A DNA stretch of 64,000 bases from Nageia nagi (taxonomy: Eukaryota; Plantae; Pinophyta): NCBI GenBank assembly GCA_050084985.1, contig JBITNC010000001.1:171430001-171494000 (forward strand), written 5' to 3'. The translations under genes were made by a program, and so were the position numbers. Below the pieces are notes generated by a model that saw only the letters and a program-made list of their open reading frames with translations, did not search any database and was not told where the DNA came from. Shown piece by piece: positions 802-50,510 of this stretch. The first letter of the stretch is position 1, and each line of letters starts with the position of its first letter.

Positions 802-3800
802 CTAGGTCAAATCTAATTCATCACGGGAGAAGTTCCACTCCTCGCTGGTGAGACCATAGGACTCAATGGTCTCCTCCAAGAATGCCACGATCGTTTGCAC
901 GCCCCTAGAAATCAGGCCAATAGTGCTTCCATTCTGCTAGAAGTAGCCTTCAATCTTTTTGATTGTGGCTTGCATCTGGTACCTCCATATGACCATCTGC
1001 CTCTCGTGCACAATAGGATGTCCTACCTTTAGCAAATTGAGATCCTCAACCTCAAGATGCTCCTAGATCAAATTCTGAGCCTTTGCCAATATCGCTTCCT
1101 TCTTCCTAACGTTATTGTCTTCCCCTTGGAACTTGAGCTGATAATGATACTCGCTCATTTGTTCCTCTACTTCCTTCCGCAAAGGGATCCTCACCTTAAG
1201 GACAACGTTGCACTTTTCAAGTGCGTGGACCAACCAATCATGGTGATAGGTGAAATCATGGTAGTAGATCAATTTCTCGAGGTTATTGGCGTATGTATAC
1301 TGCAGGTGGGAAACATTGGGTAGGTAACCATCCAATGTGCCAAGGTGAGTAACAATCTGAGTTTGAGATCTCGGATCTCAACACCTTCGGCTAGGAGCTT
1401 GTAAATGTGTGAAGACAATCTTTCGATGGTCTCCAACACCTCGTTTTTGAGTTGTTCCTTCATGAGTTCCCACCCCTTATGGAAGGAAGTTTGCTTTTGC
1501 AAATGTAAGGGGGTGGTGCTGATTTCTGGAACTCTTTATGATTTTTCGGCTGGTCGTGAGTTCTTTCTTCAATCTCTTCACTTCCTTTTTGGCTTCGCAA
1601 CCTTCCTGTGGAAACAAAAGTGTCAACCCTCCAAATTTTCTCTCCATCTAAGAGTTCTTCTTCTTCATCCTTTGAATGCAAGTCCTGGTCTATATCTTCA
1701 TCCTGAGCTGTGCTCATGCTGAGGGCTCTAAGGCAAGCATCCAGGTCAAGATCTGGATGTTCAATTGCTGACAGTGGGGGAAAGCTTTGAACCAACAGTC
1801 TTCCCTTATCAACTTTCTTGACCTCTTTCGCTAGGGTGGGCAATACTCCTATCATCTCTTTGCCTTGATGCTCCTCCTGCCTTCTCTTCTTCTTTTGTTT
1901 TTCTATCTCACCTTCATCCTCTTCATCTCCTCCACTACCACCTAAAGATATACCTTTATTTCGAAGCTGGGTTGATCTATCATAACTCCTCTTGGAAGAG
2001 GATTTATGTGAAGGAGACTTCTTCCTGGGCTCGGCAGGAGAGGACCTACATGTGGCCACCTCTCTAGCGCACTTCTTGCTAAGTATCTGGATGTCATCAT
2101 CATAAGTACCCACATCCACTATCTCATCCTCAAAGATGGTTTCCACTTCCATCTCATCAGGTGTTGAAGCACCAATGGCTACGTCCTCTTGTTGAGGCAT
2201 ATGGGCAACATTGACATCATCTTCCTCTTCCCTTTCATGATGACTCTTTGATTCTTCTGCAGAATCTTTAGCTGTACGATCAAGATTTTCATCAGTTTCT
2301 TCATTGGAAGAAGAAGAGAAGCTTCCAGAACTACTAGAACTTGGCTATAAAGGGGGAACTTTCTCTCTTGGGCTAGGAGAATGGGTTGATCTGGAAGCAA
2401 TTGCCTTAGTGGAGGAGCCACTACGACAAGCCATATTCATCACATCGTCCAGCACATCTGGAGGGAGAGCGTAATAATTAACATCTTTAAGATCAACTTC
2501 TAACACACTACACTTGCTGGGGCCTGAAATGGGCTCTCTCGAGGCCTCTTGCCTTTTCCCTACAACAAGCGAGAGTGTCTACCCTGGTGCGGAAGTGATG
2601 TGGGCAGGAGACTTGATCTTCAAAATGGGCTCCTTAGATCGAGGCTTGGTAGTTCAAGGCCTCTATGGGGGCTTTTCTACTTTAAGGGGTGCCTTCTTTT
2701 TACTCAAAAGAGCCTTAATGCATGCGATTTCCCCTTTGTCTCACACATTCCTACACCTCTCCTCATCTCCCACAGGCTCATGTGGAAAAGCAATGGGTCG
2801 ATAAAAAGTCGTGTTGTAGAAATGAGCAATCATCCCCTCAGGATCATAGTTCTTGGTAGCAACTTCCCTGAAGAAGTTGTATTGTTGCAGCTCCTCCTAC
2901 ATATGCGTTGCCACTACCTAGGTCTGGCACACATATTCAGAGAATGAAATAGGCAACTTAATGGTTGCATTCTTTTTCTTCTAGACCTTCTCCATCAAGA
3001 ACAAGAGTTGCCTAGCATACTCCATGAGGATTAACCTGTTGTTGACATATCTGGGTAGGAACATGGGTTGCTCTTCCGAGCCATAGACTCTGATGTATGT
3101 GAAGTTGTCATCTTGTAGGAAAAAGTTTACATGGACACGGATGACTTCAATAGCTGCATCAGAGATTCTCTTCACCACAGATTTTCCCTTGATATCCTTG
3201 TAGATATCGTATTCCCAGAAATTAGTCCTTTCGTAAAAGTGCTCAAATTTATGTTAGCACTTACATTTCTGGTATTCCCTCCACACAAGGACATTTTTCT
3301 ATCCCAAATACCTTTCATCAGCCAATTCCTTGGATCTGGCTTTACCATGCAGCAATAGGTACACCAGGTAAGAGTTCATGTAAAACCTCTTCGAGGAGCC
3401 GAAAAAGGACAATTGATGGTGCAAGGCATCACTAATTACCCTAGCCCACCGAATAGTTCTCCCCAAACTGATTGCACCCATAAAACCTGTGAACTCTCTC
3501 CGGTACTTGGCATCATTCTCTTGACCGGGTACTCTTGATAACAAGGTGCTCAATTTCGCCACAACTGGCAGAAATTCTTCTCTTCGTGCATTGATCAATC
3601 GTTGTCCTTGAAGGCTCTGAAACTCCTCAAGCAACCAAGGTCTAATATAATCTCCAAGCTGGGATGTGGAGTCATGGAACTCCTTCGAATGGACTAGTGT
3701 ATAATCATCCCCATAACGTTTCCAACCAAAGGCTACTTCAATACCTGCAAGGGTGAAGTACATGATCACATTACCTTCCGTGTCCCATAGCACTTTCTTG

Positions 3801-4174
3801 CTGAAATCACATTTCTTGGCCACTTTGCTGCACAAGTCAGGAAAAGGTACCGCGAATGGCATCATTGTGATATTGAACAAGCCGCATGTGTGGATAAGCT
3901 CCTCAAACAAGTCCTCTTTGCTGATGGAGGTTGTGGAGGCCAAGGTCAAAATAGGGTCCAAGTTTCCCCAATCAGTATCACCAATGAAGACATATTTCCC
4001 CTTAAATTTGGCCTCGAGGAGCTTTGGTCTACTTTTCGGATGAAACTCTATCAAACTTTCCTTCAAAAGTCGAGTCGTCTGGCTTTTGGTCACATGCCTT
4101 TCAAACAATTGGCTCTGAATCTTCCTAGTTCTCAACAGGGGTGTTTTGATGTTCGAAGCCATTGAGAACACCAC
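802..4174 (-). pseudogene. Degenerate LTR-embedded ORF, copy A (~1100 codons, unknown protein)
   Basis: ORF pieces 3299-4174, 2981-3178, 1460-2200, 1269-1502 and 1063-1335 align in order with copies B and C. Disrupted by frameshifts and stops. Confidence 0.85.
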
Positions 4175-5149
4175 TTGTCTTCCTCCTCAATCCTAGACTT
4201 CTAACTAGTCTAGGCGCACAGTTGTGGATAAGTGCAAAAGCACAGCTAGGAAAGTGTGCGACTGGGCCTAGGGGTATTTAGTCAATTTTCGAATACAATT
4301 CCTCATTCTAGATTTGGTCGCATGGTTTCGAATGAGTGCCTCAAGCATTACCTTAAAAATGTGCGACTAGGTTCAAGGATGAATGTGAAATGCCTTAGCC
4401 AAAAGAGGCTAGTTGGATGTACAACGTTCCTAAATCTTCTTTCTCTCCTGGGTCACACGTTTCAGGATGAGTGCCTAAGCATGCATGGGAAATGGTGCAA
4501 CTGGACCCTAGAATGAATGTGCAATGCCTCTTAATGATCCTCCTTCCTTGGTCACATGTTTTGAAATGAGTGCTAAAGCAGGCAAGGAAAATGATGCGAC
4601 TAAGAAGGGGGATGGGGATGAGATGAGGTATGAAATGCTCAAGAAGGGGGGTGATATTTATAGATTTGCATTTGCCAAGTGTTACTCCCTTACTAGCTCG
4701 TTAAAAGGTCAAATAGAAGGCCCACAATAGGATCACATGCTTAGTGTGCCTAAAGGACACACTTGAATCTTTACGCATGAGTCCTGGCACGCTTCCCAAA
4801 GGCTTAGATCTTGAAAAACTTCGAAAAGAGTGTAAAATGTCCTTATTTGCATGCCCAAGGATGGGTGCTTTCCCTTCTATCCTCCCATGCTTTGCTCCTT
4901 GACAATCTTGCAAACTGAAATAAAGGGGGTTGACTTCCCTTTTATAGCCTTCCAGATGGGACACATGTCACCATGGGATAGGCTCAGAATGAGGTCCTGT
5001 ACATGGGCTTCCACTTGTCAACCACGTCCGACACTTAGTCAATTTCCTTCATTTCTACCAGGTTGCATGGTTTTGGACAAGTGCAAAAGAACAAGTCTAA
5101 ATACTAATGACAACCTTTGAGGTTTAAAAAATCTGCTAAGTGTTTTTTC

Positions 5150-5740
5150 ATGCTAGTCACACCCTTTTAGAGGAGTGCAAAAGGACTCCATAAGATACAT
5201 GCGACAGCCCATGATGACCCAAAAATTTGCTAAGTATGAAGCTTCCTAGTCGCTTGGTCCCTGATGAGTGCTTGGAGGACTCACTCTAATGCATGCGACA
5301 GCCAAAAATGATGCCAAGTCTAAATGTTGGTCGCACCCTTCAGGAAGAGTGCAAAAGGACACATTACAAAGCATGCAAAAATGAGAAATAATGCTAAGTA
5401 TGAGCAGCTGCATTGGTCGCACTCTTTTGGAGGGGTGCAAAAGCACTCTACTAAACACATGCGACAACAAAATGTGACAAAATGCTAAGTGTGAGATGAT
5501 GCTCAACCTGGTCGCCCCTTTCCTAGAGGGTGCAAAAGGACTCCCCCAAAAACATGCGACAGGCTGAAAACATAGGCTTTCTTGCATTTTTCAACAAAAC
5601 AACAACAAATGAGATGCAAAATGGGTATGTACAACATGGGAGGCCCTCAGGACATCTTTTAAACATGATGATGCAAATGACAAAGACAAGGTTGGATGGT
5701 CACATGGCTTAAAGGGGGTGCAAAAGCACTCAATGGAAAA
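5150..5740. repeat. U3 array of imperfect inverted-repeat units (GGTCGCAC..GGGTGCAAAAG..CATGCGAC) in unit A
   Basis: About 5-6 units at ~90-bp spacing visible directly. Related units at 19820-20870 and 22100-22150. Confidence 0.7.
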
Positions 5741-13500: not shown

Positions 13501-15471
13501 GATAATGGCTAATCCAAACGTAACAATTCTTTCTAAAGATGATGAGAGGTGCAAAAGTGATGATATTGTGTTTCTAAAGAATAGTCCAAACGAAAGTATT
13601 TTCTTTTTTATGGGAATCAACTCTATCCAATAACCTTCATAACCTCTATCTAGAAATAAAATAAATTGTTCTTATCCAAAAGAGGATAATATCATTAAGC
13701 TAAGTATATACTAGGATCAACTTGAAATTTTCTTCTCAAATCTTCAAATAATTTATATGAAAAATAACCAAGTGAATAATGAACACCATGACAAAGAGCC
13801 ATATGAGAAACCATATGTTCAACAACATAAATACCATCATAACACATGTAAACATGAGGATCTATAACGATATTGGAATGATATAGCTAAAACAATTACA
13901 AAAGCAACAATAATATCCTTGTTCGCAAATAGTATCAACTCATAGCAAAATGTAAAAATCAACAATAGTGAAAAATCTACATGTTGGTATGTTTTTCTTT
14001 CCTCGCCCAAAACATGCACAAGACTTGGAGGAAACAACGTTACTTGTTTCCGCTTGAAAGGACTGGTTACCCCAAGTGCTCACGTGGAATATGGACTCGG
14101 GCACAATAGTCAAAGATGCATGTTGTTAACCATATACAAAGTAAATACACCGTCGGGATTCGTTTTCCACGAAGAGGAAAGACTACAAATGTGAATGAAA
14201 GCGAAGAAAGATCACAAATGCAGAGATAAATGCATAGGAATGTGAATAATGAACTTATGAAGACATCACCAGTGATGCAATGTCTTGGCAGGTCATCTCC
14301 AGATTCATTAACAAAATGTATTCACTTATCAAGCCAAGCAACAAATAGCAAAAGGCTCAAGTTACTACTAGACAAGAGCAAGAAGCTGTAGGGTCTTGGT
14401 GGAAGACTGGATGGAATAGGGTGAAGGGAAATGACCAACACGTGAATACATGAATCTAACCGAATGACATAGAGATAAGCTATACGCCCCAGAATACATT
14501 CACTTACATGCAAACCATGCAATGAAATACTGAAACCTCTTCAAAAGATATTCAATCAACTTTTTGTAAAACTCATTGTTTTCAAAGAAAATGAACTTAA
14601 GTAGTAAAAATCACTCAAACCAACAAGAGAGTCTTACAGGATAATATGCATGATCCCACAAAGGATAATCTTCACAGTATTAACTTTATAGAACTATTCC
14701 AGAAAGAAATCACTTCCAATGATATTCAACAATATGAGCAGAAACATTCCTTACTTGAGTGTCATACCCTCAACATGATATGCAAAGTGTACTAGAGATG
14801 CAACAATACACAATCATGACATGCATAGAATCCCTTACACAGCAAAGTCTTATGCAATGGAATGCTGAAATCTTTTGTATGCAAAACCACATATATGTAA
14901 ATTCTTTATATGTAATCAATGTCATGCGGAAATGGCACATATGCTATATTCTCCAATTTTTGCAAATGCAAAAATCCTCCATCTTTTACAAATGCAAAAA
15001 TCTCATGCATGCAAAAATCCTCTTCTAAATGGCCCAAGTGGGGTATATATAGGCCACTAGAAGTGTTGCCCTAAAGGCATCAAATCTAATATGGTGTGCA
15101 CACACGCAACACACATACTGATACAAAATCTGACTATTCACAAAAAACGATGCAAGTGGCATTTAAAAGCTGACAAAATATAAATGCCACAACTGTAATG
15201 CATTTAATCTACCTATAAACTAAGTAAAAGAAAATCATATATGCAGTAAAAGTTTGACATTTGAAATGGCGGGAGCAAAACCTCATCCTTGCACCAGCCA
15301 AAGCCATTAATGAGTCTGACAGATTTGATTTGACGGCAACAAAACCTCATCCCTACACTAGTCAAATTGAGTAAATGAATTCTAACATAAAAAACACAAT
15401 AACAACCACTATCAATATGCATTTAATACTGGACTGGATAATCGCAAACGGAATCTGTGAGTGGATCAGAT

Positions 15472-18400
15472 CTAGGCCAGATTTGACCCAGTACCGGCGT
15501 AGTTCCACTCCTCGTTGGTGAGACCGTACGACTCAATGGTCTCTTCCAAAAAAGCTACGGTCTTCTGTACTCCCCTCGAAACCATGCCAACGATGCTGCC
15601 ATTCTGCCTAAAGTAGTCCCCAATCTTCCTGGACATAGCTTGCATCTAGAATCTCCATATGACCATCTGCCTTTCGTGGATGATAGGATGCCCTACTTTC
15701 AACAAAACGAGATCTTCGACATCTAGATTCTCCTAGATTAGGTTTTGGACCTCTGCCAATACTACTTATTTCCTACGCACGTTGTTATCCTCCCCTTGAA
15801 ATTTGAGTTGATATATGTACTTGCTCATCTGGTCCTCCACTCCTTTCTCAAGGGGATCTTGCCTTTCAAAACGGCATTACATTTCTTGAGTGCATTCTTC
15901 AGTCAGTCGTGATGGTACATAAATTCATGGTAGTAGACCAACTTCTCAGGTATGTCAACAAAGATCTGTTGTAGATGGGTGACATTTGGGAGATAACCAT
16001 CTAGCTTCTAAAGGAGGGCTATTATCTAAGATTTGAGTTCCCAGATCTCAACACCTTCCTCAAGTAGGCTATATATTTGATAAGATAACTTCTCAATGGT
16101 CTCCATCATCTCCTTCTTCAATAACTTCTCAATGGTCTCCATCATCTCCTTCTTCAATTGGTCCTTCATCAACTCCCATCTTTCATGGAACGAAGCTTGT
16201 TTCTTCAGGTCAACAAGGGTGGTGCTAACGGTTTGGAACTCCTTAATGATTTTCTTGTTGGCTGTGAGTTCCTTCTTGAGTCTTCTCACCTCCTTCTTCG
16301 CTTCATAACCTTCCTGTTCTATGAAAGCAACATTTTGAGTAACAATGTGCTTTTGGGCTATCAGACCTAGCTTAGTGGACATCTCAATCACACAGTCCTT
16401 GGGTCTTTGAGGATGTTTCTCCTTGGAGTAGCAGTGAGTGATGGAGATCTCTTTCCTTGTAGTAGAAACAAAGGTGTCTACTCTTCTAACTTTCTCACCA
16501 CCAGAGAGCTCTTCTTCATCCTTAGATCTAAAGTACTGATCAATTTCTTCGTTATGAGTCGTACTCATGCTCAAGGCTCTAAGGTAGGCATCTAAGTCAA
16601 GATTCAGATGTTCGGTTGTTGGCTTGAGAGGGAGGCTTTGCACCAACACTCGGCCTCTGTTGATATTCTTGACTTCTTTGGTCGAAGTGGTTTGAACAAG
16701 GGCAACTTCCTTACCTTGGTGCTCATCCTCCTTCCTCTTCTTTTGCTCCTCAATCTCCCCTTTGTCTTCTTTGTCTCCGTTGTTGCCACTTATTGATAGA
16801 CCTTTCTTTCGTGGCTGAGGGATCTTTCATGGCTGGTTCTCTTCACAGAAGGCTTCTAGGAAGACGAGGGTGACCTTTTTCTGTGTTTAATAGGAGAGGG
16901 TTTGGAAGAACCCACTTCTTTGGTATACTTCACTCCAATGATTTGGACTTCATCATCATAAGTCCCAACATCTATAATCTGGTTATCATCATTAAAGAGA
17001 GTTTCAATCTTCGTATCATCAGGTGCAGATGCACCTATGTCTACATTGTCTTGTCTGGGGTACTCTTCACGAGCAGCATCATCTGCATCATCATCATCAT
17101 CTTCTTCTTCTTCACCACGACTCTCGTCATCACTTCTCTGGCTCTTTGTCACATCCTCGGAGCCTTGTACAGTACGACCGGGTTCTTCATCTATTTCTTC
17201 AAAGGAAGAAGAACTAGAATGTTCGGAGGAACTAGAACTTGGCTGTAATGGGGGAACTCTTTCTCCACATCCAGGAGGACGAGTGGGTCTAGATGGAGTT
17301 TCCTCAACATGGAAATCATTGGCACAGGCCTCCTCCAGCATACTCAAGGGGCCCATATGGTAACCGGCACATCTGATATCAGCCACCACCTATTGGCTTT
17401 TCCTTGCTACATTAGCCACCACGTTGCGTTTGTTAGGTCCTAGGGCATGCTCCCCTAAAGCTCCTTGTCTCTTCCCAATGGGAAGCAAGGATGTTTTGGC
17501 TTGCAGAGGCACAACACTTGCAGAAGGAGGGGATGTCTTGATCCTCAATGGGACCTCTTTAGGTCTCTCTTTCATAGTTCTAGGTCTCTGAGGTGTCCTT
17601 TCTGCTTGGAGAGGAGCCTTATTCCTGCTCAAAAGAGCATCTATTCTCGCTATCTGCTCATCTCGCACATTTCCGTACTTATCCACATTCCCTAAAGATT
17701 TATGCTGGTAAGCAATAGGTTTCTAGAATGCGGCGCTATAGAAATGAGCAATCCCATCTCTAAGATCATAATTCCTAGCTACCATCTCCTTGAAGATGTA
17801 TTGCTACAGCTCCTTCTTCATGTTATTAGCCTCAACCCATGTTTGACAAACATAACTTGCAATTGAGATGGGCAAGTTGATGGTTGCATCCTTCTTTCTC
17901 CATACTTGTTCCCTCAAAAACAATAATTGTTTAGCAAATTCCATGAGAATAAGTCTATCACTGGCATATTTGGGTAGAAGGGGTTGTTCTTCGGAGCCAT
18001 AGACCCTGATGTAAGCATGATCAATATACTGCAGATAGAAATATGCATGTACGATGATGGCCTAAATAGCAACATCAGAAATCCTCTTGACCACCGATTC
18101 TCCTTTGATATCTTTGTAAATGGCATACTCCAACCGATCATTCCTCTTGTAGAAATGCTTAAACTTATTATGGTACCACCACTTCGGATAGATCCGCCAC
18201 ACTGGTTAAGGTATCTCTCATCCGCAAGCTCCCTTGATCTAAGCTTGCCATGCAACAACAGGTACACAAGATAGGAGTTCATATAGAACCTCTTGGAGGA
18301 GCCAAAGTAGGCTAGTTGGTGGTGCAAGGCATCATTGATTACCCTTCTCCATTTGCTGTCTCTCCCTGAGTTGATCATGACGATAAAGCCAATGAACTCT

Positions 18401-19065
18401 TTCTTGTACTTAGAGTTATTTTCTTGACATGTGACTCTGGACAACAAAGTGATCAACTTAACAACTGTGGGAAGGAACTTTTCCCTACGAGCACTAACCA
18501 ATCTCTGGCCCTGGATACCTTGGTAGTCTTCATACAACCATGTTCTGATATAGTCCCCAGGACGGGCAGTGGAATCATGGAATTCTTCTGGATTTGCCAA
18601 TGTGTAATCGTCTCTATATCTTCTCCAGCCAAAGGCAGCTTCAATCCCTTTCGAAGAGAAGTCCATGATCATGTTCCCTTCAGTGTCCAAGAGAACTCTT
18701 TTATCATATTTGCAGCGCTTGGCTATCTCATAGCACAACTCAGGAAATGGAACAACAAAAGGCATCATAGTGGCATTAAACAGTCCACAAGAGTGGATGA
18801 TCTCATCTGATAACTCCTCCTTGTTGATGGAGGCAATGGAGGCTATGGTCTGGATGGGGTCAACATTCCCCCAATCTATATCACCAACAAAGGCGAATCT
18901 CCCTTTGAACTTGGCTTCAAGGAGCTCTAGTTTCTCTCTTTCTCGAAATTCTATTTGACTCTCCCTCAGGATTCTCTCCATTTGGTCATCTGTTACATGT
19001 CTTTCAAAAAGCTGCCCCTGAATCTTTCTGGCCTTGAATGGGGAAGGCCTCACCTTAGAAGTCAT
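15472..19065 (-). pseudogene. Degenerate LTR-embedded ORF, copy B (~1200 codons)
   Basis: ORFs 17914-19065, 17390-17686, 16856-17389 and 16026-16649. The C-terminal HERQMVIWR..AFLEETIESYGLT is shared with copy A. Confidence 0.85.
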
Positions 19066-21008
19066 CTTTAAACTCTGGAAAATGTGTAGAAACTTGCAGA
19101 AAATGCTGAAAATCTGGTTGGGGATGTCTTAGCACCAAATTGAATGTGTCTTAGAGAATGCAGAAAAAAATGGCTAGACGTGCAAGTCTAGGCTGCAAAA
19201 GCGCCCTGTAGTAATAAACTTGGAAGTGCCCTCTTATAGAAACTGCATGGAGGGTTTGTGCATGGCACACTGCATATATGCCACTTGTCTCTTTAATCTT
19301 TCAAATCCTGGCTTCTTCCACACTTAGACAATTTCAGCTCACAAGACAATTTCAGCTCACAAACCCAAGGGTGCACGGGTTAGAGGACATGCTTTTTCAC
19401 TGATGGAAAACATGTGAACTAGCTTCTGATGGGCAAACACATTACTTAGTCAATTGAGGTCAGCAAGATTCCATAATGAGGATCAAATCACCACTCAATG
19501 CTAGGGCACACGGATTCGGGCATGTACTTTTTCATGTTCCACAAAGCATGTGCCTCAAATTTGTATGAACAACTGAAAGGAGAATGATATGCACCTGTTT
19601 TTCATGTATACTTAGCCAAATTCTTGAATCTGGACCTGGGCACACAGTTTCGGATGAGTCCTTGAAGCACTAGTAAGATAGCATGCGCATAGGTCAGTTT
19701 AGGGTCAACTTCGTAAAAAAGATGCGAAGTGAATTACAGAAAATGGACCCTGAGATCTAGCTCACCCTCTTCAAAAATGGCTACTAGCAGTCCAAACGCC
19801 TCTTCAAACCCTTATTTCTCTTGGGCGCACCGATTTTGATGAGTCCTTAAGCATGTTCCAGAAATGGTGCGACTAGGTATCTTAGTTCAAAATGATATGA
19901 AGTGGTAAAATGATAAAGGGGTGACTTGATATATATAGTCTTCAAACTTGCCCGTGTCACCTTTTGGTTGGCTAGAAATGAGGTCAAATGACAGAGTTAG
20001 GATGATGGGCGCACCGATTAGAGGATGTGCAATAGCATGTCCCAGAATACATGCACCAACTAGCTTGTGTCCTTCAAAAGACTTAGTCAATTTTCATCAT
20101 GCTTGCAAGCTCTTGCAACTTGGTCACACCTTTTGAGAGGGGTGCAAAAGCATGTACTTGAAAACATGCACTTGGTCCTCTTCCACTTGGATTTTATACT
20201 TAGTCAAAAGTGCTCCTGGGCCAGGATGTATGGAAACGGGCACACCAATTTGGGTGAGTGCCTAAGCACACTCCAAAAACCATGCGCCTAGTCTGTGGCA
20301 CACTTTCCAATGCAATGGATTTAAAAATAACGAAAATGAACTTGAAATTTGTAATCCATAACAGGGCGCACTGTTTAGGGGACACGCTTTCTAGACTTAA
20401 CTCCACACAATGCTCCGAATTCAACCAAACAAACTAAATGCTGAGATTGACATTCCTTTTATAGATTTGTAGGGGTGGACAAGTGTCATGCAATGATTGG
20501 TGCATGTGAAGGTCTAGTGCATTTGGACACGCCTATCTCTCTCATAATGGACATCCAGATTCAACACTTAGCCAATGTTTGCGTCTCAAAATAGGGCACA
20601 CCAATTTGGGGACATGCAAAAGCATGTGCCAAAAACCTTGCGCTCAATCCTCCTTGTCAATTTCCTGAAATCTTCGAAGTGTTGAGACACCTTATCATCT
20701 TTGGCGCACCGTTTTGGGGACGTGAAAAAGCATGTCCTTGAAAACATGCGCTCAAGCTGCTTTAACATTTTTCTTGAAATTTTTTTAAGTGCTAAGCGTA
20801 CATTTCCTGCCCTGGGTGTTGTTTAGAGGACATGCAAAAGCATGTCCCTCAAAACATGCATGCAAGCACAAAATGCAATTTTTCTTCTAGAATGCCCTCG
20901 ATAACACAATGCAAGGAGGGGATGCAATTTCCACAAAATGACCAAGTGTAATGAGGCATGAATGATACAATTTGAGGCTGAAAATGCATGACTTAACCCA
21001 AAAATATG

Positions 21009-22002
21009 CAGTATGAAGGTGTTGTGTTCTAAATGAACACTTGTGCCAAATTGCAACCCTTAAATCCACAAGGGCTTCCAAAAACCTCAACCACACCTTC
21101 CAGGCTCCAACGTTGAGACTCAAGGGCTCCCAAGAACTCCATAAGCTTGACGTCAACCGTCCTTACTAATCAATCATTAACAAGAGAAATACAAATAGCA
21201 CATTCACCCAATACCAAGCATGAATGCAATGATCATTCACAACACAATAATGAGACAGGAATCCTCAATGATATATTTATTCAATGGAGACAATTACATT
21301 ACCCAAATGGCAGTCGTGGCCTCTTCAAGATGGCCAGATATACACAATCAATCACAAACGCAACTCAGAACAATGGGACAGATTCACTCCCTTAGCCCTC
21401 GACTCCTCCCCACTAAAAGGGCTCTCCTCGAACATTGAAAATCCAACTAAATGGAAGGAATGGAACCCTCGGATGCTATTGGATGGACTTGATGCTACAC
21501 CAAGTCAAGACAATTGGGATCCATCAACCCAATCACCCTCTAGATGCTCCGTCTAGGTAGAATTGCTCAGCCCTGGCTAAGACTTGCGGTCTGAAAGTCA
21601 AATAGAAGAAGTATAATCATCAATAGCTGTCCTCAAACGAGTCTCCAAGGTCTATTTATAATCTCATGTTGTGTTCCTACCTTGAAGTCACCAATTCTCC
21701 TTTATTTCCAATGTTGACCAGCTAAGGGGCCCATAATGCCTAGCGTGGGTGTTCAAGTGTCCAAACATGCCACGTGGCTCCTCCTTATGCTCAAATGGCT
21801 AGCGCATGCCCCAGAGGTGCCACACATGCATGAAGGTCACAAGAAGGATGATGTGGGGCCTCAAGGTATTGCTAGGTCTCCTGGGGTAGACGTGGGGCCA
21901 CTCTTGGCTTGACACATGCATAATGAGCCACAGGGAGAAGATGTCCCACTTGGGGCTCACAATGGAGGTCAATGACCCAATAGTCTCCTATCCCGGGTTA
22001 CA
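21009..22002 (-). mobile_element. Unrelated ~1-kb solo-LTR-like insertion in unit B
   Basis: Absent from unit A. Ends GGGTTACA, flanked by ATATG on both sides, minus-strand TATAAATAG near 21652. Left terminus lacks TG. Confidence 0.45.
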
Positions 22003-22262
22003 ATATGGAAGAATAACATAAAGTAAACCTATATTACAATGGGATTCTCAAGAATCCACTAAAGTTGTCAGGAACACAAAGGGGACGTCACAAAAGGAGG
22101 GCGCATGTTCCATGGTACATGCAAAAGCATGTCCTTCAAAACATGCGCCATAGGTGAAATGACCAAATTTCGACTTGTTTAAACATGGAGATGCAAATTT
22201 GTCATGTTTCCCTTCCTCTACTCTATGATGCATGCATTTACTTAGAAAAATTCGTTCATGCT

Positions 22263-23400
22263 TTTTGTGTCTGCACAACACACCCCAAAATACAAGATTT
22301 TGGGGAACCTATTTTTGCAAAGGCAAAGAAGTGCATTGCCTTGAGATTGGCTTTTGGCTACAGATAATTCATTCTGAAGAGTGCAAACATGATATTAGGG
22401 AGCGATTCAAGGAGATCTTGCGATGAAGACCCTGAAGAGTATCAAAGTATCCAGCCACCAATTTGGAGCCAAAGAGCAAGGATCTAAGACAAAGTATCAG
22501 AGCATGGATTTTTGGTCTAGAGTGCAATCAATAGAGATGGCGTTGTTTTTCAAAGTTTTAAGCTCACAAGTGCCACGAATGACACAAATGAGCATTTTTT
22601 GTCAAGTTTAAGTCCGGGAGCAGTGGATGTAGCTAAGGTGACAAAAATAAGTGTTTTTGTCAAGTATGAGCCCGGAAAGCTCAACAATGGTCATTATCAC
22701 GAAAAAACGCGTTTTGGTCAATTTTGAGCCCGAAAGTGGTCAGTACAGTAAAGATGTGTGTTTTTGCACCATTTGAGCCTGGAAAGCTCGGAAATGGTCA
22801 AAAATGCAAAGTTGAGCTCAAAATGATCAAAAATGCTCAAAAATGCCAAGAATGATTGTTTTTTCACACTTAACGCCTGGAAATGTTGGGAATGATGGAA
22901 AATGACGAGTTTGGGCTTGGAAAGGCGGAAATGGTTGTTTTTGCACCATTTGAGGTTGGAAATCATAAAAAAATATAGAGATTTAGTCCATGATGGATAG
23001 AAAATGTGAGTTTGAGTACCCTTTAGCCTAAGGCACATTTTTCCAAGGTATTGAAGACCCAAATGAGGGAAAAATGTTGCATGTTTCTCATAGATAAATG
23101 TAAATGGTGTTAAAATTCAAGTATAAGAGCATTATTGGAGAGAAGGTGAATTCTACCACAAGTAGGACTTGAAATTTTCGATTTTGACCAAACCTAAGGC
23201 ACTCATCCTAGGCACAGTTTTTCAAGCCTATGGGAAATCCATAGAGATGATTTTTGGCGCCTAGATTGTGGAGAAAAGGTGGAAATATATCGAAATTCAA
23301 ATGTAAATGCATAGATGGGTGGAAATGATGGTTCTAAGGCACTTTAGGTCTTGAAAATTTTTATTTTGAGCAAGTTTAGAATTTTTAGATTTTTGAAGGA
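22263..23400 (+). mobile_element. 5' part of a plus-strand LTR of the 42134 family
   Basis: Colinear with 42134-43350. Breakpoint approximate. Confidence 0.8.
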
Positions 23401-24299
23401 AAATCCAAATTTTTTGAATTTTGAATTTGAAATTTTTTGAGTTTTCTCAGCCCTTAGATTCTTTTTGGATGCAAAAAGGTGGTTTTTAGGAGTTTGTGTT
23501 AACCAAATTGCACAAATGATAGATCAAAATGGTGTAGAATCACACCACCTATCTCATAGAAGTGAAAAATTGCAATTTTCGGCACTTTTAGGGACCAAGG
23601 AGGCTAGGCGCAAGTTTTAGGATGTTTAGGCAAGTTTTGAAAAATGAAAAAAATGGGGATATCTTGCAAAACCAGCGCCTACCTTTTAAGGGGGCAAAAT
23701 TAGTTTTTGAGCAAATTTGCAAGAGGCAAAGATGCTTGCATTTGGATTTCGAACCCTACCTTTCTTTCCAATTTTGTTTTTGGGATTTTTGAAATTTCTT
23801 GGAAAATTTTGGAGCTCTCCCATTGGCTGATCCAATTTTTGGGATTTTGAGGGAGTAGATCAAATTTTTTCTAAAAACTTAAAACATGAAAGAGATGCAA
23901 AATTGGATTTCCCATACTCCTAGCATAAAAAAATTTGATTTTTGAGCAAAAATAAGGGCTTGCAAGCTAGACAGAGGTTTTAGGGACTTTGGCATGTTTT
24001 TTGGAAATTTAGAAAATGGGGGAAACAAGACAAAACTGCCACCTAGCTTTTTGAGGGGGTAAACTTGATTTTTGTGCAACATTGCAAGAGACAATGTTGA
24101 TCTCCTTTGAATTTTGCACCCTACCTCACTTTCCTTTTTTGATTTGACCAATTTTGAAAAATTTGGAGCCCTCTCATTGGTCAATCGAAATTTGATGATT
24201 TGAGGAGGTAGATTTCACTTTTAAAAAAAAAAGACAAATCATCAAACTGTTGGGATGAAAACATTTCCTACCGGCCTATGATTGCTTGCACACAATCAG

Positions 24300-25583
24300 G
24301 ATGAGATTTTGGGGACCCTATTTTTGCAAAGGCAATGAGGAGCATTGCCTTGAGATTGGCTTTGGGCAACGAATAGTTCATTTTGAAGAGTGCAAACATA
24401 ATATCAGGGAGCGATTCAAGAAGATCTTGCGACGAAGGCCTTGAAGAGTATCAGAGTATCTAGTCACCAATTTTGGAGCCAAGGAGCCAGGATCTGAGAG
24501 AGAATATTAGAGTAGGAATTTTTGGTCTAGAGTGGAGGGAGTGGAGATGGGGTCGTTTCTTCAAAGTTTTAAGCTCACAAGTGCCAAGTGTGATGAAAAT
24601 GAGCGTTTTTGCAGAGTTCAAGTCCAGGAGTAGTGGATGCAACTAAGATGACAAAAACAAGCGTTTTTGTCAAGTATGAGCCCGCAAAGCTCAAAAATGG
24701 TCATTATCATGAGAAGACGCGTTTTGGTCGATTTTGAGCCCGAAAGTGGTTAGTACAGTAAAGATGTGCGCTTTTGCATCATTTGAGCCCAGAAAGCTCG
24801 AAAATGGTCAAAAATGCAATGTTGAGCTCAAAATGACCGAACATGCTCGAAAATATTGAAAATTTGAACATTTTTGTGCCTTCTCTTTGAAAACTCTCGA
24901 GTTTTAAGAGAACTTGTAAACTTTTCTAAAATGTTTGAATTGTCTTAAATTGTTGCTAATTATCACTTGCTTGTTAAATGTTTAGTATTCTAAATTGACT
25001 CTCTTAAGACATCTTCTTAGATCTTTTGTTCAAGACTATCCACCTTCACTCACGTTTAGTCCACTTGATTGCATCGGTCCTGTTCGTAGAGTACGGACAA
25101 TCAATCCTGCTTCTCGCTCATCTTTGAAATGATTGGACAATAGTTGTTCATTTCAAAGACTTGATTGAATTGAACAAGATTTCTTAACCGATCTAAGAGA
25201 AAGAACATTTAGACAATGCTGCATTGTGATTACCTCTTTGAAGTCTAGCCAGCATTCGACCTCATTCTCACTTTTTCTTTTCTTTATTTTATACTTTCTT
25301 TAAAACATATGGCAACTTTTGAACTATTGTAAGATAAAACACCTCAATCCCTACAAAAAACGTGAGTTAACAGTTATTACCTCTGCTACACCACTCAGCT
25401 GATTCGCAACAAGACCTACAATTTAAAGCTCGTATTAATGACATGAGCTTTCCAATAGAAACCTTGGGGTATCAATCCTTACAAACGGAGTTCAGTAATG
25501 CGTTCTCACCTACATGCTGGGTCGCTTTCTTGTCTTGATCTATAGGCAATCGCCGAGTAAGAGGAAAGGTTTCCTTCCCAACA
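24300..25583 (+). mobile_element. Internally deleted plus-strand LTR nested in U5 of unit C
   Basis: 24300-24855 matches 42165-42720, then jumps to sequence matching ~45230-45947. Ends GGTTTCCTTCCCAACA. Confidence 0.75.
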
Positions 25584-26484
25584 AAAAGCACCCAGCATTT
25601 AGGTGAGATAGCGTAACTTACCTCCTCTTGAAAGGACTGAAACCCCAAGGTTTGTTCGTGTTCCCGTTGAAGTAGCACAATTTTATATAGTTGGGGGAAT
25701 GAACTCAACTGGTTTGATAGAGGTAGAGGCTATTAACTCACATTTTTTATAGGGACAAGGTGTTTTTGCGATGATAGAAAGTTGCTCTGGTTTTGTAAAA
25801 AAAAAGAATGTAGGAAAGATAAAATAAGCAAATAAAAACAGGAAAATGGTGAGAATGATCCAATATTGGTTAAGTCACAAGGCGATTTTCACAACAAAGC
25901 ATTGTCTAAAATGAGACATTTTCTAATCGATTAAGAAGTTATCGTTCATTCAATCTAGTTCAAGGTGAATGACTTTTGTCCAATCAACTTTGAATCTAGA
26001 GCATACGGTAGGATCGATTGTCGATACTACGCGAACGAGACCGATGAAATCAAAGAAATTTAGCATAGAACACACGCTTTGGAATCATGTTTGAGCGAAA
26101 GCTTCAAATAAGATATAAAAAAGAAACAAATTCAAAATAATTTTGTTTTAAGTGTAGAAGAGGCAAAAGATGGTAGACTTAAAGCAATTCGAAATATTTT
26201 TTAAATTTTGAACAACTATTTTTTCCTAAAACTCTCAAGTTTTCAAAGAAAAAAAACGAAAATATTTGAATCATGAAAGAAAACCACAAACTGAATCCCA
26301 TTCACCACTCCACATATGACAAATGTCTTGAGCAAATAAGCAACCACTTTCTATTAGCTTATAAAAGAGTTACAAAAAAGTTTCCACAATTTTCTTCTTT
26401 CACAAAAAATTTGAACTTCTCAAAATTTTCACTCTTAGAAAAGCTCCAAACTTTCGTTCTTACATAAAAGTTACCCCTAGGGTA

Positions 26485-26492
26485 TATTTATA
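26485..26492 (-). promoter_or_regulatory. LTR TATA box of unit C (downstream of the embedded ORF)
   Basis: CTATAAATATACC in the same context as 56584-56596 of the ORF-less LTR. Confidence 0.65.
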
Positions 26493-26678
26493 GAATTTCT
26501 AGGGTTTCCAAGTGTTTCCCTAATTTTATAAGAAAATATTAAAATATTACATATTTGCCTCCTACGACTAAGTCAGCTGACTTTTGGCAAGCTGACTAAG
26601 CACGAGTAGGGTTAGTCGAGTTTTGGTGCTCAACTTTCCCGGCTAACTAATTTACAAAATTTTCAAAAATGACAAAAA

Positions 26679-29600
26679 TTACGATGGCTGATTTGCGGTT
26701 TGCACATGTGATGCGATGGTGGCCTCGAAGTTCATGCCCATAACGGTTTCTCTATTCTTGACTCCAATGTTAAGAATTTCCATAACTCCATTTGCCAATA
26801 GATATGCAATGATGGTTTTTGCAGTCTTCTTCATCTCGCTACACCATACTGCCATGTCGTTGCCATATTTGAGCTGCTTGCCGGATATGAGAACATTGAT
26901 ATCTTCAGTCTTTGAGGTAAGTGGTAATCATCAGCTAGAACTCATCTATTACTGTAGCGTAATCTCTGTTATGTCCATCTTTCTTGATCAATCTTACATC
27001 AAATTGGTATTCTGCTAGTTGTTTCCCCATATCTACCTTAAAATTTGCCCAAACTCGGATGAAATCCTAACACTTTTGAATAGCGTAGAACAACCAATCA
27101 TACTGGTAAAAGAATTGATGATAGTATTCCATTAGTGTTCGCATGCCAAGAATCTTTCTTCGTAGTTCGTGCATCATTTGATAATTGTTGCCCCACCTGG
27201 TTATTAGTTCATGGATCCTATCTTTTACAAAGAATGATCCATTTTCCTCGATAAAGAAATTAGTTATTCCTAGGAATAACTCTTGGATGGCTTCTTTGGT
27301 TTCTCTTACGCACTCTTCTTTGATCACTTGAATCCCAATATTCAAGAAATTTGCTTCTTGATGTCTTCAACTGTTAGGTTAGCAACTCGTATATCAACGG
27401 TCAACCTTTTCTGTCCAGCCAATTCTCTTTTAAGCTCCTTGAGCTCTACATTTTGTGATGTGTTCTCTGTCAACGCTACAACATTGGTGACGATTGCATG
27501 TTGCCTACCCAGAGTGCCTATCTTTTTTCACAACTCCTCTCTCGTTTCCACCACTAATGCAAATTCCCCATTGGCATTTCTTTTCCTCCCTACAGAAATG
27601 GTATTGGTCACGATGGAGTCATCCTTCATTGAGACGTAAGTGGCTATATGTTCAAGTTCAATATTTGAATCTTGATCGATTTCAATGTCAGCACGGGCTT
27701 CAGATGGGTGGTGTGCTCTCAAATCGTTCAAAAGTGCCTTCATGTCGAAATTGTAACCAAGTTCAGGATCAGCAACTGTAGCCACCTGTCTCTTAGGTTT
27801 CCCTTGATGTTCATCCTCTCTCCTCTTTTTCCTCTAGTCTTCATTTGCACCTTCATCCTCCTCATTTCCTCCATCTCCTTCTGATGAGGAAGCTATTCCC
27901 TTGGTTGCTAAGGTCCTTCGTGGAGCAATTGGTGGAGGTTTTCTCTGAGGTGGAGGTGTCTTCTTCGGTTGTTGAGGTAAGGAAGCCCGTGTAGACGTAG
28001 GTTTTGTAGCTTGTATGGGTTCTTCCATGGTAGGAGGATCTATGGTCGATATCTCCTCGATTGATGAATCTGATTCATTGTCTGAGATATAAGGTATTTC
28101 TAATATCTGACCATCTTCCAAAGGCTCTCTTAAGAGGTCTCCTTCGTCAATCTCATATTCATCCTCACTATCACTGGAAGGAGGAGCAGGAGAACTAGGG
28201 CTAGAATAGTATAATTGTCAATCTCGGGATGGACCTCTGGGAGGGACTTTCACCAGCTTCTTCAAGCATTTGTATGGTGTGAAGTGCTACCAATCTCTTT
28301 AGTGCTTTTCATCTCTTGTGATAATCCTCGTATGGTCTGGTCAATAGTTTGCACTGCTTGAACAATGAGTGTAGCATATTGACCAGACTATCCTTGTGTT
28401 AATCTCACAGAAGGTGAGATTGATGGAGGCACGTACGGAATCGGGGATTCCCTTTAAGGATTACTAAAGGATGTATCATGGCTACTGCATTCTCCTCTTG
28501 CAGACCTCTCTTCTTCTTCTTCTTGGTTGCTATCTGCAAAAGCTTCTCTTCCACTGCCAAATCCCTATTTATCTTGCTGATCTGCTCTATATCATTTACA
28601 TTTCTATACCTTTCGAGCTTTCCTAGGGATTTGTGGGGGTAATCGGTTTGCCATGTTTTCTTGAAAAATGCATCAATTACACTTTGGGGGTCATAGTACT
28701 CTACTGCCTGTTCTACTGTGAAGCCGTAGTATGCCAACTCCATCTTCATTGTTTTAACTTGTCTCCAGGACATGCATTCGTACTCCCTTATTCTAATAGG
28801 TAATTTACAAGGTGGCACCTTTCTTACACCAAACTTTCTCGTCCAGGTACGACAAGTGTCTACAAAGTTCCATAAGTATAAACCGATCACTTGCATAATG
28901 AGGAAGTCTGTAAGGTGGCTCAGTTGACCTGTAGACCCTGATGTATGTGGCATCCATTTCTTTGAGATAGATATCTACATGTCCTTGAAGAGCTTGGATT
29001 GCCGCCTCTGAAATTCTAGTCATATTGGCGGTCCCCTTTATTTCCTTGTATATTCGGCACTCGAATCCGTCATTCATCATTTTAAATTCGTCCCATCATC
29101 TTTCCAGCTGAAATCTAGGGTAGCTCCACCAGATAGGCATTTCTAGGTCAAACAAGTACTTGGTATCTACTATGGTGGATTTTCTGTTCTTGCCATGTAG
29201 GAGCAGAAATACCAAGAGCTCATGTAGAATCTTTTGGTCTCTACGAGCTAGGACAATTGTTGGGCTATACAATCACTGATCGCCTTGGTCCATTTGATTC
29301 CTTTGCCTCATCTAATCTCATGTATGAAGCCGGCGAACTCTTTCCTGAATCATTGGTCGTTCTCTTGCCTTGTAATTCTGCACAGCATGTTGATAATGAT
29401 AGAGACTATAGGATAGAAGTCTATCCTCCTTGGTTGGCTTCAGGCCTTTGCCTTGTAGTCTTTGCACTCGTCAACCAACCAATCTCTTATCAGGTTCCCC
29501 GGCTTTGTCAGGCTGTTAAAGAATTTGACAGAGTCCATCATACTGAATATGATTCCCTCATTGTAACAAGCAAAAGCGCTCTCTATTCCTTCCATTGTGA

Positions 29601-29955
29601 AGTCTAGTATCTTGGTGCCTTCATTGTCATTAAGAATCCTCTCCTTCTTATTGTAGTATCTGGCTACTTCAAGGCACAATTCTAGGAATGGAGCAGTATA
29701 TGGGATCCTATAGGCTTCAACAATTCTGGATTGAGCAAGTGTGTCATTGAGCAACTGTTCATATGGGATTTTGGCCATCTTCTCTAATGACTTAACGGGA
29801 TTAGTGGATGCCCAGTCTATGTCTTTGATCTGACAAAGGCCGTCTACTAATGTGGTCGTAGGGAAAGCAGTTCTCCCTTCTTTTTCTAGGGTGATCGAGT
29901 TGATCTTCATAAGTCTCTCCATCTAAAGTTCCTTGTTTTTCTTAGCAATACTCAT
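26679..29955 (-). pseudogene. Degenerate LTR-embedded ORF, copy C (~1090 codons, most divergent)
   Basis: IKDIDW, PFLELCLEVA, ILDFTMEGIESAF and IYKEIKG..RISEAAIQA..YIRVY..LPHYASDRFILME match copies A and B. Confidence 0.85.
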
Positions 29956-30799
29956 TGTTTATGCCTTGTGGAACACAAGGTGTTAGAAGTGATACTGGGT
30001 ATCTCTGGAGCAATTTTGGAGTGAAAAAGAGATAAGTCAAATTTTGGCCTATTTTTGGGATTTTTCAAAAGCTAAGTGTGGATTTTCGAGAATTTTAAAG
30101 TTCATCGAGAGTGGGAAACGAATATATGGCGTGTTGGCAAATAAATCTAGGAGGCTTGTGGCCAAGTCTCAAAGAAAAATTTCGAATTTTCGGTGTCCAA
30201 ATTAACTCGCTGTTTTTTTAGCCCATGTATTCATTTTTTGACAGATTTTGGCAGCTTCGAAGCTTGGGAAGATGGGGATGCAAAATGGGTTTTCAAGCTT
30301 CGTTTTTGGGAGGTGAATGATAGAGGCTGCTCTCCTATATAAGGTCTATCACTTTGGTATTCACTTCGAAGTTTGAATCTTTCAAAATTTGGGAGTTTTT
30401 TGACCTTGAAAAAGCATTTTTGTATTTTTTCACATTTTTTCGAAAGCTGGAAAATGGTGAAAATGGCCAAAAGATAGGGGGGTTTGAAATTTGGAAAAAT
30501 TTTAAAAATTGGATTTGACCTAATGGATGGATAGAGGATGAGATTCTAAGATTCTTGAGAAATTTTGAAAAAAGTTTGGCTTATTTTGGATCTTGTGAGC
30601 AAATTTGAAGTTTTTGAGCATTTTTGTGAGGTTTTGTGAGGATTTTTCTCAAAATGGGTGCATGGAGGCTCAAGGAGAGTGTTTGTGAAGCAAATGAGAG
30701 GCTTAGGGGGCATTTATAGGTTTTTTGTGCCTTTTGCACGCTCTTTAGTGGACTTTTGACCTAAAAAGTGCTCTAATGGTGCATTTTGCATGTTTCTTA

Positions 30800-32300
30800 A
30801 GGTTTTGGAGCCTTCAAACACTCCATAGGCTTGAAAATCAGCGCCTAACTTTTGGAGGCACCTTCTTTGGTCAAAATTGAAAAATTCAAAGTTTAAACAT
30901 CCTTATTTTCTCCTTCTCCACCCAATCAAGTGCAAAAAATTGAATTTTGGTGGATTTTGGGACTTTCTCCTTGCATCTAGGCGCCATTTTTCATTTTTTT
31001 TGAAGTTTCCAATGGCTTGCAAACCTGCGCCTGACTTTTTGGGGCATTTCTAGTGCTCAATTTCAAAAATTTGTAAGTTTAAATGTCCCTAGAAAGCCTT
31101 TTTCCATGCAAACATGTAAAAAAAATGGAATTTTTGCAAAATTTGACTTTTCCTCATGCTAGACGCCAATGTTCACTTCATTGGATTTAGAAAAATAAGC
31201 AAACCAATGCCTAGAATTTTAGGCCACTTCCCTTGCTCAAATCGAAAATTTGCAAGCTTAAATGTGCTAGAAATCATGTTTTCCTTGCAATTGACCCTTT
31301 AAACTTGGATTTTGAGCAAAATTTGCAAAATTCTTCATCCTAGGTGCTAGATTTCACTCCATTGGATTTCCAATGGCATTAAAAACTGCACATGCCCTTT
31401 AGGTGCCTTAAAATTGCTCAAAATTGGAATTTTGTAGTTCTAAATGTGCTCAAAATGGGGTTTTCCACCTAATGGACATCTTGGGATGAATTTTTAATAC
31501 ATTTTTCACTTATCTCTCCAAGTTAGACGCCATTTCACACCTCTATGGATTTAGAAACATTAGAAAACCTGCACCTAGCCTTTGAAGGGTCAAAACTTGC
31601 TCAAAATCCAAATTTTCAAAACCTAATTGTGCTAGAAATCATGTTTTACACCTTGTAGACCCTTCAAACTTGAATTTTGACCTAAATTTGTCAATCTTTT
31701 ATGATTCTAGGCGCTAGATTTCATCCCATTGGATTTCCATAGCTCTCAAAACCTGCGCCTAGCCTTTAGGATGCCCAAATGTGCTCAAAATTGAAAATTT
31801 TGAGACCTAAATGTGCTTATAATCTTGTTTTCCTTGGTCCCAAGTACTTAAACTTGATTTTTGGTCAAAAAAACATTCCATCTTGTCATTCTAGGTGCCA
31901 TTTTTCACTCCATTGGAATTGGAAAACTCTAGAAACTTGTGCCTAGCATTCTGGGGGTCTTTACTTGCTCAAAACCAAAATTTTTGAGACCTAATGTGGC
32001 TTAGAAACATCATTTCCACTTATTCATGCATTTAGATTTGATCTTTGATACATTTTACCTTTTCTTCACTTCCTAGGCACCAAAATGCACTTCTATGGAT
32101 TTCCCATAGGCTTGAAAAACTATGCCTAGGCTTAGAGTGCCTTAGACTTGTTCAAAATTGAAAATTTCGAATCTTAAACATGATAGAATTCATCTTATCT
32201 CTCCAAATATGCTCTTAGACACGAATTTTGATGTCATTTGTATTTACTCTGAGAAACAAGCACCATTTTCCCTTACTTGGATCTTCAGTAACTTGGAAAA
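30800..32300. repeat. U3 tandem array, ~120-bp degenerate unit with CTAGGCGC / GCGCCTAG motifs
   Basis: Recurring TTGCTCAAAA..CTAGGCGC..CATTGGATTTCC..GCGCCTAG. Same array at 43100-44480 and 55210-56000. Confidence 0.75.
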
Positions 32301-45100: not shown

Positions 45101-45947
45101 TGTAATTTTTGCACGAATTTAATACAAAGTGGTGAAATATTTGAAACAAAGAGATTTGTCATTTGTGAAATTGTGGATTTGACCATTTTGGAGCTTTTTG
45201 AGATGATATAGAATCTTTCACGTTGTTCCTTGAAAATTCCTGAATTTTAGAAAAAAAATTCTGAAAAATTTTAGAAGTTTTTGAATCACTCCCAAATCGT
45301 CGCCTTTCTACAATTTGTATAGTAAGTGAACGTATTCTCGGCTTCTCTTGTTTCTATGACATCAAATTAGATTTTTTTATTCGAAACGAAGTTTGTGCAC
45401 TTGTTGTGTTGTGTCTTTCTGTTGATTGCATCGATCCTGCTTGCAGAGTACCAACGATTAGCTCTCCTCCCTGCTCCTCTTAAGAATAGACTGAACTTAG
45501 ATTATTCTATTTTTAGGTTGGAGGACTTCGAATGAAACTTCTTGAATGATCCTAAAGTAAGAGACCTTAGACACTGCTTCACTATAACCTTTTCTTTGTC
45601 ATCTCACTAGTATTCAAAACATTCTCATCCCTTTTTTCTTTTCTTTATTTTACACTTTCTTTAAACATATGGCAACTTTCGAACTATTATAAGATGAAAC
45701 AACTCAATCCCTACAAAAAATGTGAGTTAGCAGTTATTACCTCTACTACACCACTCAATTGATTTCCAAACAAGACCTACACAATTTAAAGCTTGTATTA
45801 ACGACACGAGCTTTCCGATAGAAACCTTGGGGTATCAGTCCTTACAAGAGGAGTTCAGTAACGCATTCTCACCTACATGCTGGGTTGCTTTCCCATCTTC
45901 ATCGTATGGGTGATCGCCGAGTAAGAGGAAAGGTTTCCTTCCCAACA
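42134..45947 (+). repeat. 5' LTR (3.8 kb, ORF-less variant)
   Basis: TGTTGTGCCC...TTCCCAACA. 43648-45947 is repeated at 55210-57502. Confidence 0.9.
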
Positions 45948-45952
45948 TAGAT

Positions 45953-45972
45953 TGGCGCTAGAAGGAGGGTCG
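45953..45972 (+). promoter_or_regulatory. Primer binding site complementary to tRNA-Asn(GUU)
   Basis: TGGCGCTAGAAGGAGGG five nt after the LTR end; complement of the plant tRNA-Asn 3' end CCCUCCUUCUAGCGCCA. Confidence 0.85.
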
Positions 45973-46228
45973 TTTGATTGTTCTATCCTTCCCTAAAACA
46001 GGCTAGTTTAACTTTTATCTAGCTCCTCTTCTCTACGCGCCAACATAGATAGGTGCTAGAAGGAGGGTTGTTTGATAGTTTTATCTTCCCTATGCTAGTG
46101 TCCACTTGTTTTTTTACCGACGACCTGATTTTTTTTTCTTGCTCTACTTAATTGTTGTCTTTTTCTTTTTCTTTTTTCTTTTTTTCCTGCTCCTTTAAAA
46201 ACTTCAAGTTGGGACCTAGAAGAGAGAA

Positions 46229-50201: not shown

Positions 50202-50510
50202 ATGTCATTGGATGGATATTGTTTTTGGAGAGCAATTAAAAAATATATTGGCAAAGATGGTTTAACATTTGATTCAGATTTTGGTGAGTTTGGCATAATT
50301 GAGGGATTCCGCAACTTGGAGTATTGTGTTACCCTTGAAGTTGAAAAAATAAAATCAGACTTGGAAACAGGTTATTTGGCCGATGTTGAAGACAATGAAG
50401 ATAAAGATGTTGTTGAGCTATTCGATGCTGCCTCTACTTCCACCTTACCATCTCTTCGAAGCATGCCTCCTAGAAGGAATCCTCCTCGTAAGAGGAGACA
50501 TGTGATGTAA
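50202..50510 (+). CDS. Small ORF upstream of Copia gag (102 aa, unknown)
   Basis: ATG-initiated and uninterrupted; acidic middle and basic C-terminus PPRRNPPRKRRH. Confidence 0.35.
   Translation: MSLDGYCFWRAIKKYIGKDGLTFDSDFGEFGIIEGFRNLEYCVTLEVEKIKSDLETGYLADVEDNEDKDVVELFDAASTSTLPSLRSMPPRRNPPRKRRHVM

Follow-up and report, generated by a model that had tools for sequence, protein, structure and literature searches.

A 64,000-nucleotide stretch of the Nageia nagi genome (the window; GenBank assembly GCA_050084985.1, contig JBITNC010000001.1, positions 171,430,001 to 171,494,000 of the forward strand) consists of a nest of long terminal repeat (LTR) retrotransposon fragments, and it holds three related copies of a large accessory gene, which we call A, B and C. 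The original prediction, made from the letters of the sequence, had noticed these copies; six-frame translation and tblastx confirmed them and placed all three on the minus strand, with copy A beginning at an ATG at 4162 and not at 4174 as first proposed. The gene copies and the LTR units that carry them are listed here in window coordinates.

802..4162, minus strand: accessory gene copy A, about 1,120 codons, interrupted by stops and frameshifts (six-frame translation, tblastx)
2723..4162, minus strand: N-terminal globular domain of copy A, 480 amino acids
5914..5931, minus strand: 5′ terminus of the LTR of unit A, TGTTGTG..CACAACA (motif scan, self-comparison)
13982..22263, minus strand: unit B, gene-bearing LTR, about 7.2 kb without the nested insertion at 21015-22094
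15470..19065, minus strand: accessory gene copy B, broken
24248..33277, minus strand: unit C, solo LTR, 7,749 bp without the nested plus-strand LTR piece at 24304-25583
26690 (approximate)..29922, minus strand: accessory gene copy C, broken, placed within the U3 part of the solo LTR

Stops and frameshifts make pseudogenes of all three copies (six in-frame stops fall within the first 480 codons of A); a related protein, P0112, is intact at 1010 amino acids, and among ten related proteins looked up an organism was named for one, the gymnosperm Taxus chinensis. When segments were translated separately and compared with the 480 N-terminal residues of A, amino acid identity was 65% and 57% for B and 32%, 42% and 37% for C, in agreement with the proposal that A and B are close and C is distant. 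The shared architecture also held, as the copies are homologous through the linker up to the C-terminus and not in the N-terminal part alone, and the last segments of A and C scored 14.9 and 12.2 standard deviations above 300 shuffles. The seven motif strings first given proved to be approximations: GIExAF and YIRVY are exact in all three copies, and GDxDW, PFxELC, W.RVI.DALHHQL, FYMNSYLVYLLLHGK and LP.Y..DR.ILME are exact in only two, with relaxed forms in all three. The predicted S/D/E-rich linker was found (D+E fraction 0.18-0.20), as were basic clusters; however, KQKKKRR and KKKKKR are not equivalent linker clusters, the former (A) being the counterpart of KKRK in B and RKKRR in C, and the latter a separate cluster that directly follows the globular domain of C. 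The helical, coiled-coil-like C-terminus gained modest support, a crude heptad score being positive in one of 12 window segments (in B) and in windows of the intact P0112. Copy B carries, in its helical C-terminal part, an exact 36-bp in-frame tandem duplication (16085-16158, minus strand).

Long-term purifying selection had been proposed for this protein, and pairwise Nei-Gojobori (NG86) counts over in-frame segments, from which stops and gaps were excluded, support it. Between A and B, dN was 0.288 and dS 2.48 (704 codons), with identities of 0.73/0.75/0.47 at the three codon positions; in the N-terminal domain these were 0.76/0.79/0.47, a clear third-position excess, with a pN/pS of 0.26 (bootstrap 0.22-0.30). 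Omega was approximately 0.16 for A-C (457 codons) and 0.39 for B-C (435 codons). The ratios are rough because synonymous sites are saturated, the protein-guided alignments lower dN and the C-terminal third is uncounted; no pair gave a value near 1, which would have spoken against selection. The selection acted on ancestral active lineages, the window copies being dead, and the families split long ago while the protein was kept up.

The gene is located within LTRs of 7-8 kb, likely in their U3 region, and these LTRs are likely those of a Ty3/Gypsy (Tat/Ogre/Athila-type) retrotransposon. The LTR was defined from a gene-less element in the window. TATA or TATA-like boxes occur on both sides of the gene, those downstream of it being placed by alignment to the gene-less LTR.

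42134..57502, plus strand: reference element defining the LTR, with gene-less LTRs, gag and protease, and a nested Copia element
26485..26493, minus strand: main TATA box of the C LTR, the orthologue of 56584-56592 in the gene-less LTR
15044..15052, minus strand: TATA-like box in LTR B, lying downstream of its gene with about 1.07 kb left to the LTR end (aligned to the gene-less LTR TATA box)
4655..4663, minus strand: TATA-like box, putative gene promoter, some 500 bp upstream of the copy A ATG (from sequence)
30712..30719, minus strand: second TATA-like box of C, about 800 bp upstream of the ATG, putative gene promoter (from sequence)

Unit C has TG..CA-type termini at 33277 and 24248 (ending CAACA) and a 5-bp duplication, GTTTG, at both flanks. 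Its start matches the gene-less LTR at 42134-45947 over 2,029 columns (68.8%), and the gene comes next; after the gene the 3′ part of the LTR is matched over 898 columns (60.6%), followed by the nested LTR piece. Because both termini, LTR homology on each side of the gene and the GTTTG flanks are present, we read unit C as a solo LTR. If the conserved TATA box marks the transcription start, then the gene is in U3, since that box aligns downstream of the gene in C; the second TATA-like box of C was not seen at the corresponding position in the gene-less LTR. The other units are less complete. For A only the 5′ terminus (5931) was seen, the 3′ part being cut off near 400 or lying outside the window, and for B only the 3′ terminus at 13982, the 5′ tip being lost at 22263; B matches the 42134 LTR in short 3′ stretches only. 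In contigs from four public runs (at most three samples) the loose ends at 13982 were heterogeneous and there were joints that bypass 21015-22094, and in each run thousands of diverged contigs covered all 30 bins of B and C, gene included. A metagenome scan gave 97 pattern matches that reduced to three loci (L001, L002 and L003). L001 and L003 show colinearity with B from the gene as far as the same terminus, and their flanks are unrelated; in L002, sequence resembling the 5′ part of 60013/34853-type LTRs precedes the gene.

The reference element has a 5′ LTR of 3,814 bp (42134-45947, TGTTG to CAACA), a primer-binding site (PBS)-type sequence at 45953, which we take to be a putative tRNA-Asn site, and a second PBS-like copy at 46051. 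Gag and protease follow in this non-autonomous Gypsy-type element, with no reverse transcriptase (RT), and this is the only linked internal region. The partial 3′ LTR (55210-57502) is 87% identical to the 5′ LTR (Kimura two-parameter distance 0.093), and the target-site duplication, GAATG/AAATG, matches at four of five positions. Because the gene is held by both A/B and C, which are deeply diverged, and C is the nearer relative of the gene-less LTR, loss of the gene in the gene-less lineage would be the simpler history. The element itself sits in a gene-less solo LTR (60013-41070, minus strand), just upstream of the latter's TATA box. LTRs of this superfamily repeatedly nest in one another, often near termini or the TATA region, and 22263-25583 is a mosaic of truncated, nested LTR pieces in both orientations. 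Insertions of a second family of LTRs occur in three independent gene-bearing copies: within U3 in B (21015-22094), within the gene in L001 (3962-5463 and 8514-10011) and after the N-terminal domain in L002 (357-960 and 5600-6275).

The original prediction saw a loose resemblance to a plant-mobile-domain (PMD) or putative plant transposon protein. By sequence this gained no support. Neither the seven open reading frame (ORF) pieces of the window nor 27 proteins matched the Pfam profiles PMD (PF10536), Transposase_32, Transposase_28 or ATHILA ORF1, and these were absent from the 25 of 49 families listed for 143 members; DUF1985 likewise had no sequence-profile match in the window pieces, in the 27 proteins or among those listed families. 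Language-model leads to ATHILA and Transposase_32 were weak, and no integrase-like or chromodomain signal was found in profile and structure searches. By fold the resemblance is supported indirectly: the top structural match of the predicted model of the copy A N-terminal domain (residues 56-333) was VANC21 (PDB 9LNK), at 9% identity, the only solved structure matched, with no PMD structure seen in the library searched. Folded residues 334-480 (about 150) had no structural match. A match to an ordinary transposase or host gene, which would have told against the prediction, was not found by the Pfam and structure searches. Thus the defining sequence tests place the protein outside the PMD, Transposase_32 and VANC families, and the model indicates that it probably has a PMD/VANC-type fold. 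The VANC and MAIN/MAIL PMD domains are structurally homologous (PMC13547354; bioRxiv 10.1101/2024.09.27.615353), and because of this reported homology MAIN, MAIL1 and MAIL2 likely belong to the same fold superfamily. PMD-A clades are encoded by Gypsy elements (PMC5418596).

Repeated units were found in U3 upstream of each gene copy, and they contain candidate target sites in the form of spaced inverted dyads.

4214..5559, minus strand: U3 dyad array upstream of gene A, inverted half-sites of the type TCGCA..38 bp..TGCGA
30820..32180, minus strand: 183-bp tandem array in U3 of C, carrying dyads of the type CTAGGCGCA..38 bp..GCGCCTAG

The pattern, two inverted CpG-containing half-sites, was chosen after inspection. 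Its counts peak at a 38-bp spacer, where A (4163-5931) has eight dyads against a shuffle maximum of five (the dyad at 4682 is atypical), B seven against six, C five against five, the gene-less 42134 LTR seven against six and its 3′ copy five against three; the unit at 63034 peaks at a 36-bp spacer with seven dyads against four. None of eight control regions exceeded its own shuffle maximum, and one (the U5 side of B) peaks at 38 with three dyads. The peak was absent in three LTR-type regions (60013, 34853 and upstream of L002). The shuffle test overstates significance because the tandem units are not independent. Dyad flanks and spacer sequences vary among families and the spacing is kept, as would be expected if a DNA-binding protein that acts as a dimer had co-evolved with its sites; we infer that the dyads are targets of the accessory protein. 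Another LTR family, at 61400-63034 (minus strand) and at 1700-2960 of L001, has strongly self-complementary U3 dyads with a 36-bp spacer and offers a natural test of spacing co-evolution.

These observations suggest a model in which the accessory protein, with its predicted VANC/PMD-like fold, bound the U3 dyads and kept the LTR promoter unsilenced; we give this reading a probability of about one half. The gene would be transcribed from the internal U3 TATA box about 0.5-0.9 kb upstream of the ATG, and the protein would be imported into the nucleus via its basic clusters and oligomerise through its helical C-terminus. Paired heads of the oligomer would then bind the 38-bp dyads, and silencing marks would be lost locally at the LTR promoter, in the way that VANC acts on VANDAL elements. 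Lying in U3, the gene would be present twice in every new insertion and would be retained by every solo LTR, so that solo LTRs could provide the factor in trans, and gene-less LTRs in which the dyad array is kept, such as the 42134 family, could live off factor from other LTRs. More tentatively, gymnosperm Gypsy LTRs may carry an old, widespread VANC-like anti-silencing system with gene and target array both in U3.

The placement of the gene could be only apparent: in these copies, recombination or deletion would have brought an ordinary internal extra ORF, like those of TatIII, Ogre and Athila, into an LTR. It counts against our placement, and for this alternative, that PBS or gag-pol sequence followed the 3′ end of a gene-bearing LTR at none of four ends, and gymnosperm TatIII elements do have an internal, antisense PMD ORF, with later lineages combining PMD and a coiled coil (PMC4408406). 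However, C has both termini, a perfect target-site duplication and colinearity with one LTR on either side of the gene; the three insertions B, L001 and L003 have one and the same layout from gene to terminus and differ in their flanks; A opens with an LTR 5′ terminus; and the gene is in sense orientation, which together make an internal origin very improbable. We regard as highly improbable that the gene encodes an env-like membrane or movement protein or is a domesticated host gene: extra ORFs in sense orientation close to the 3′ LTR are commonly termed env-like (PMC7264820), but no strongly hydrophobic segment was present (best 19-residue Kyte-Doolittle mean 0.95-1.48 in four proteins), every window copy is broken and sits in an LTR, and the diverged contigs over the gene number thousands in each run.

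Other alternatives keep the gene and fold and differ in what the protein does. A protein that simply activates transcription at the LTR promoter, or antagonises Polycomb there, in the manner of MAIL1/MAIN or of retroviral transactivators and without VANC-type demethylation, would fit the acidic linker, which could serve as an activation region, and MAIL1 and MAIL2 associate with promoter motifs, counteract H3K27me3 and have structure in common with VANC DUF1985 (bioRxiv 10.1101/2024.09.27.615353). Yet the transposon factor VANC21 is the one solved structure matched, in a library where no PMD structure was seen, and amplified family-specific arrays fit the VANC pattern; we consider such an activator rather unlikely. 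The repeated nesting of these LTRs would fit targeting, by a protein that guides complementary DNA into the nucleus or into integration by binding LTR DNA, and a repressor limiting copy number would agree with host PMD proteins that promote transposable element silencing (PMC5418596); import and regulation are both named as options for extra ORFs (PMC7264820). The dyads, however, lie in U3 upstream of TATA boxes and not at the LTR tips, and the searches gave no integrase-like or chromodomain signal, so that we find this doubtful.

Some window features lie apart from the accessory gene. A short ORF at 50220-50510 (plus strand; about 97 codons, acidic middle, basic C-terminus) stands between the gag-protease region and the Copia insert, and the frame enclosing it had no Pfam match. 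The nested Ty1/Copia element (50700-55200, plus strand) has gag, integrase and RT, and a matching 5′ LTR was not seen in self-comparison. Short stretches at 11500-11800 and 63300-63600 resemble host gene exons by eye, on the minus strand, and are possibly one gene with the retrotransposon nest in a long intron. A tandem array with a 15-bp period (about 12 copies) occupies 36001-36198.

Genes in or overlapping U3 are familiar from retroviruses, namely sag of mouse mammary tumour virus (MMTV), lentiviral nef and foamy virus bel/bet. The analogy is one of placement alone, a U3 gene duplicated with each insertion, the proteins and hosts being unrelated. A protein gene of about 1,100 codons within an LTR is unusual in itself. 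Full-text literature searches on extra or LTR-internal ORFs of plant retrotransposons and on anti-silencing or VANC-like factors of retrotransposons, which covered few subscription papers, returned no description of the present arrangement; no LTR-internal gene is described in the available portions of PMC11728184, PMC12844716 and PMC1560396, nor in those of the main text of PMC6317226, whose supplements may list such elements. The latter scored extra ORFs upstream of the polyprotein region or downstream of it, and surveys of that design may not have distinguished an LTR-internal gene; it gives LTRs of up to about 5 kb, compared with 7-8 kb here. The gene persists through solo-LTR formation and may account for many unnamed gymnosperm 'hypothetical proteins'.

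The additional ORFs described for plant Gypsy elements sit in the internal region, and what they do is a long-standing question (PMC7264820, PMC11963269). Those of Ogre, Retand, TatIII and Athila (PMD, Transposase_28/TRP28, Transposase_32, ATHILA ORF1) are likewise OTA-type Gypsy accessory ORFs, apparently with their own promoter and beside repeat arrays, and the 'PMD-CC' layout (PMC4408406) likewise joins a globular domain to basic clusters and a coiled coil. In contrast to the gene described here, which is in sense inside the LTR, they are internal, before gag or between pol and the 3′ LTR, in the published portions available. The novel aspect is that a PMD/VANC-like accessory gene sits with its candidate target array inside the LTR. 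Because one unit brings together a candidate protein, a link by fold to a protein-DNA complex of solved structure and family-specific candidate sites, extra-ORF function becomes testable by binding.

The closest functional comparison is with VANC, and by analogy the accessory gene likely works in the same way. VANC binds short motifs amplified in tandem repeats (PMC5735166), and in the literature searched sequence-specific anti-silencing was described for Mutator-like DNA transposons only. The host element of VANC is a Mutator-like VANDAL transposon, whereas here it is an LTR retrotransposon; VANC targets a 9-bp direct motif, whereas the candidate targets here are spaced inverted dyads; and VANC is described as dicot-specific (PMC13547354), whereas this gene is from a gymnosperm. 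The host PMD proteins MAIN, MAIL1 and MAIL2 act at promoter DNA motifs and are encoded by intact, low-copy genes, in contrast to the multi-copy, decayed transposon genes of the window. If our model is correct, a plant retrotransposon had a sequence-specific anti-silencing factor, the VANC/PMD fold is pushed back to gymnosperm retroelements, and every solo LTR would be a self-contained, trans-acting anti-silencing cassette, exploited by gene-less LTR families, which could help to explain the persistence of such elements in giant conifer genomes.
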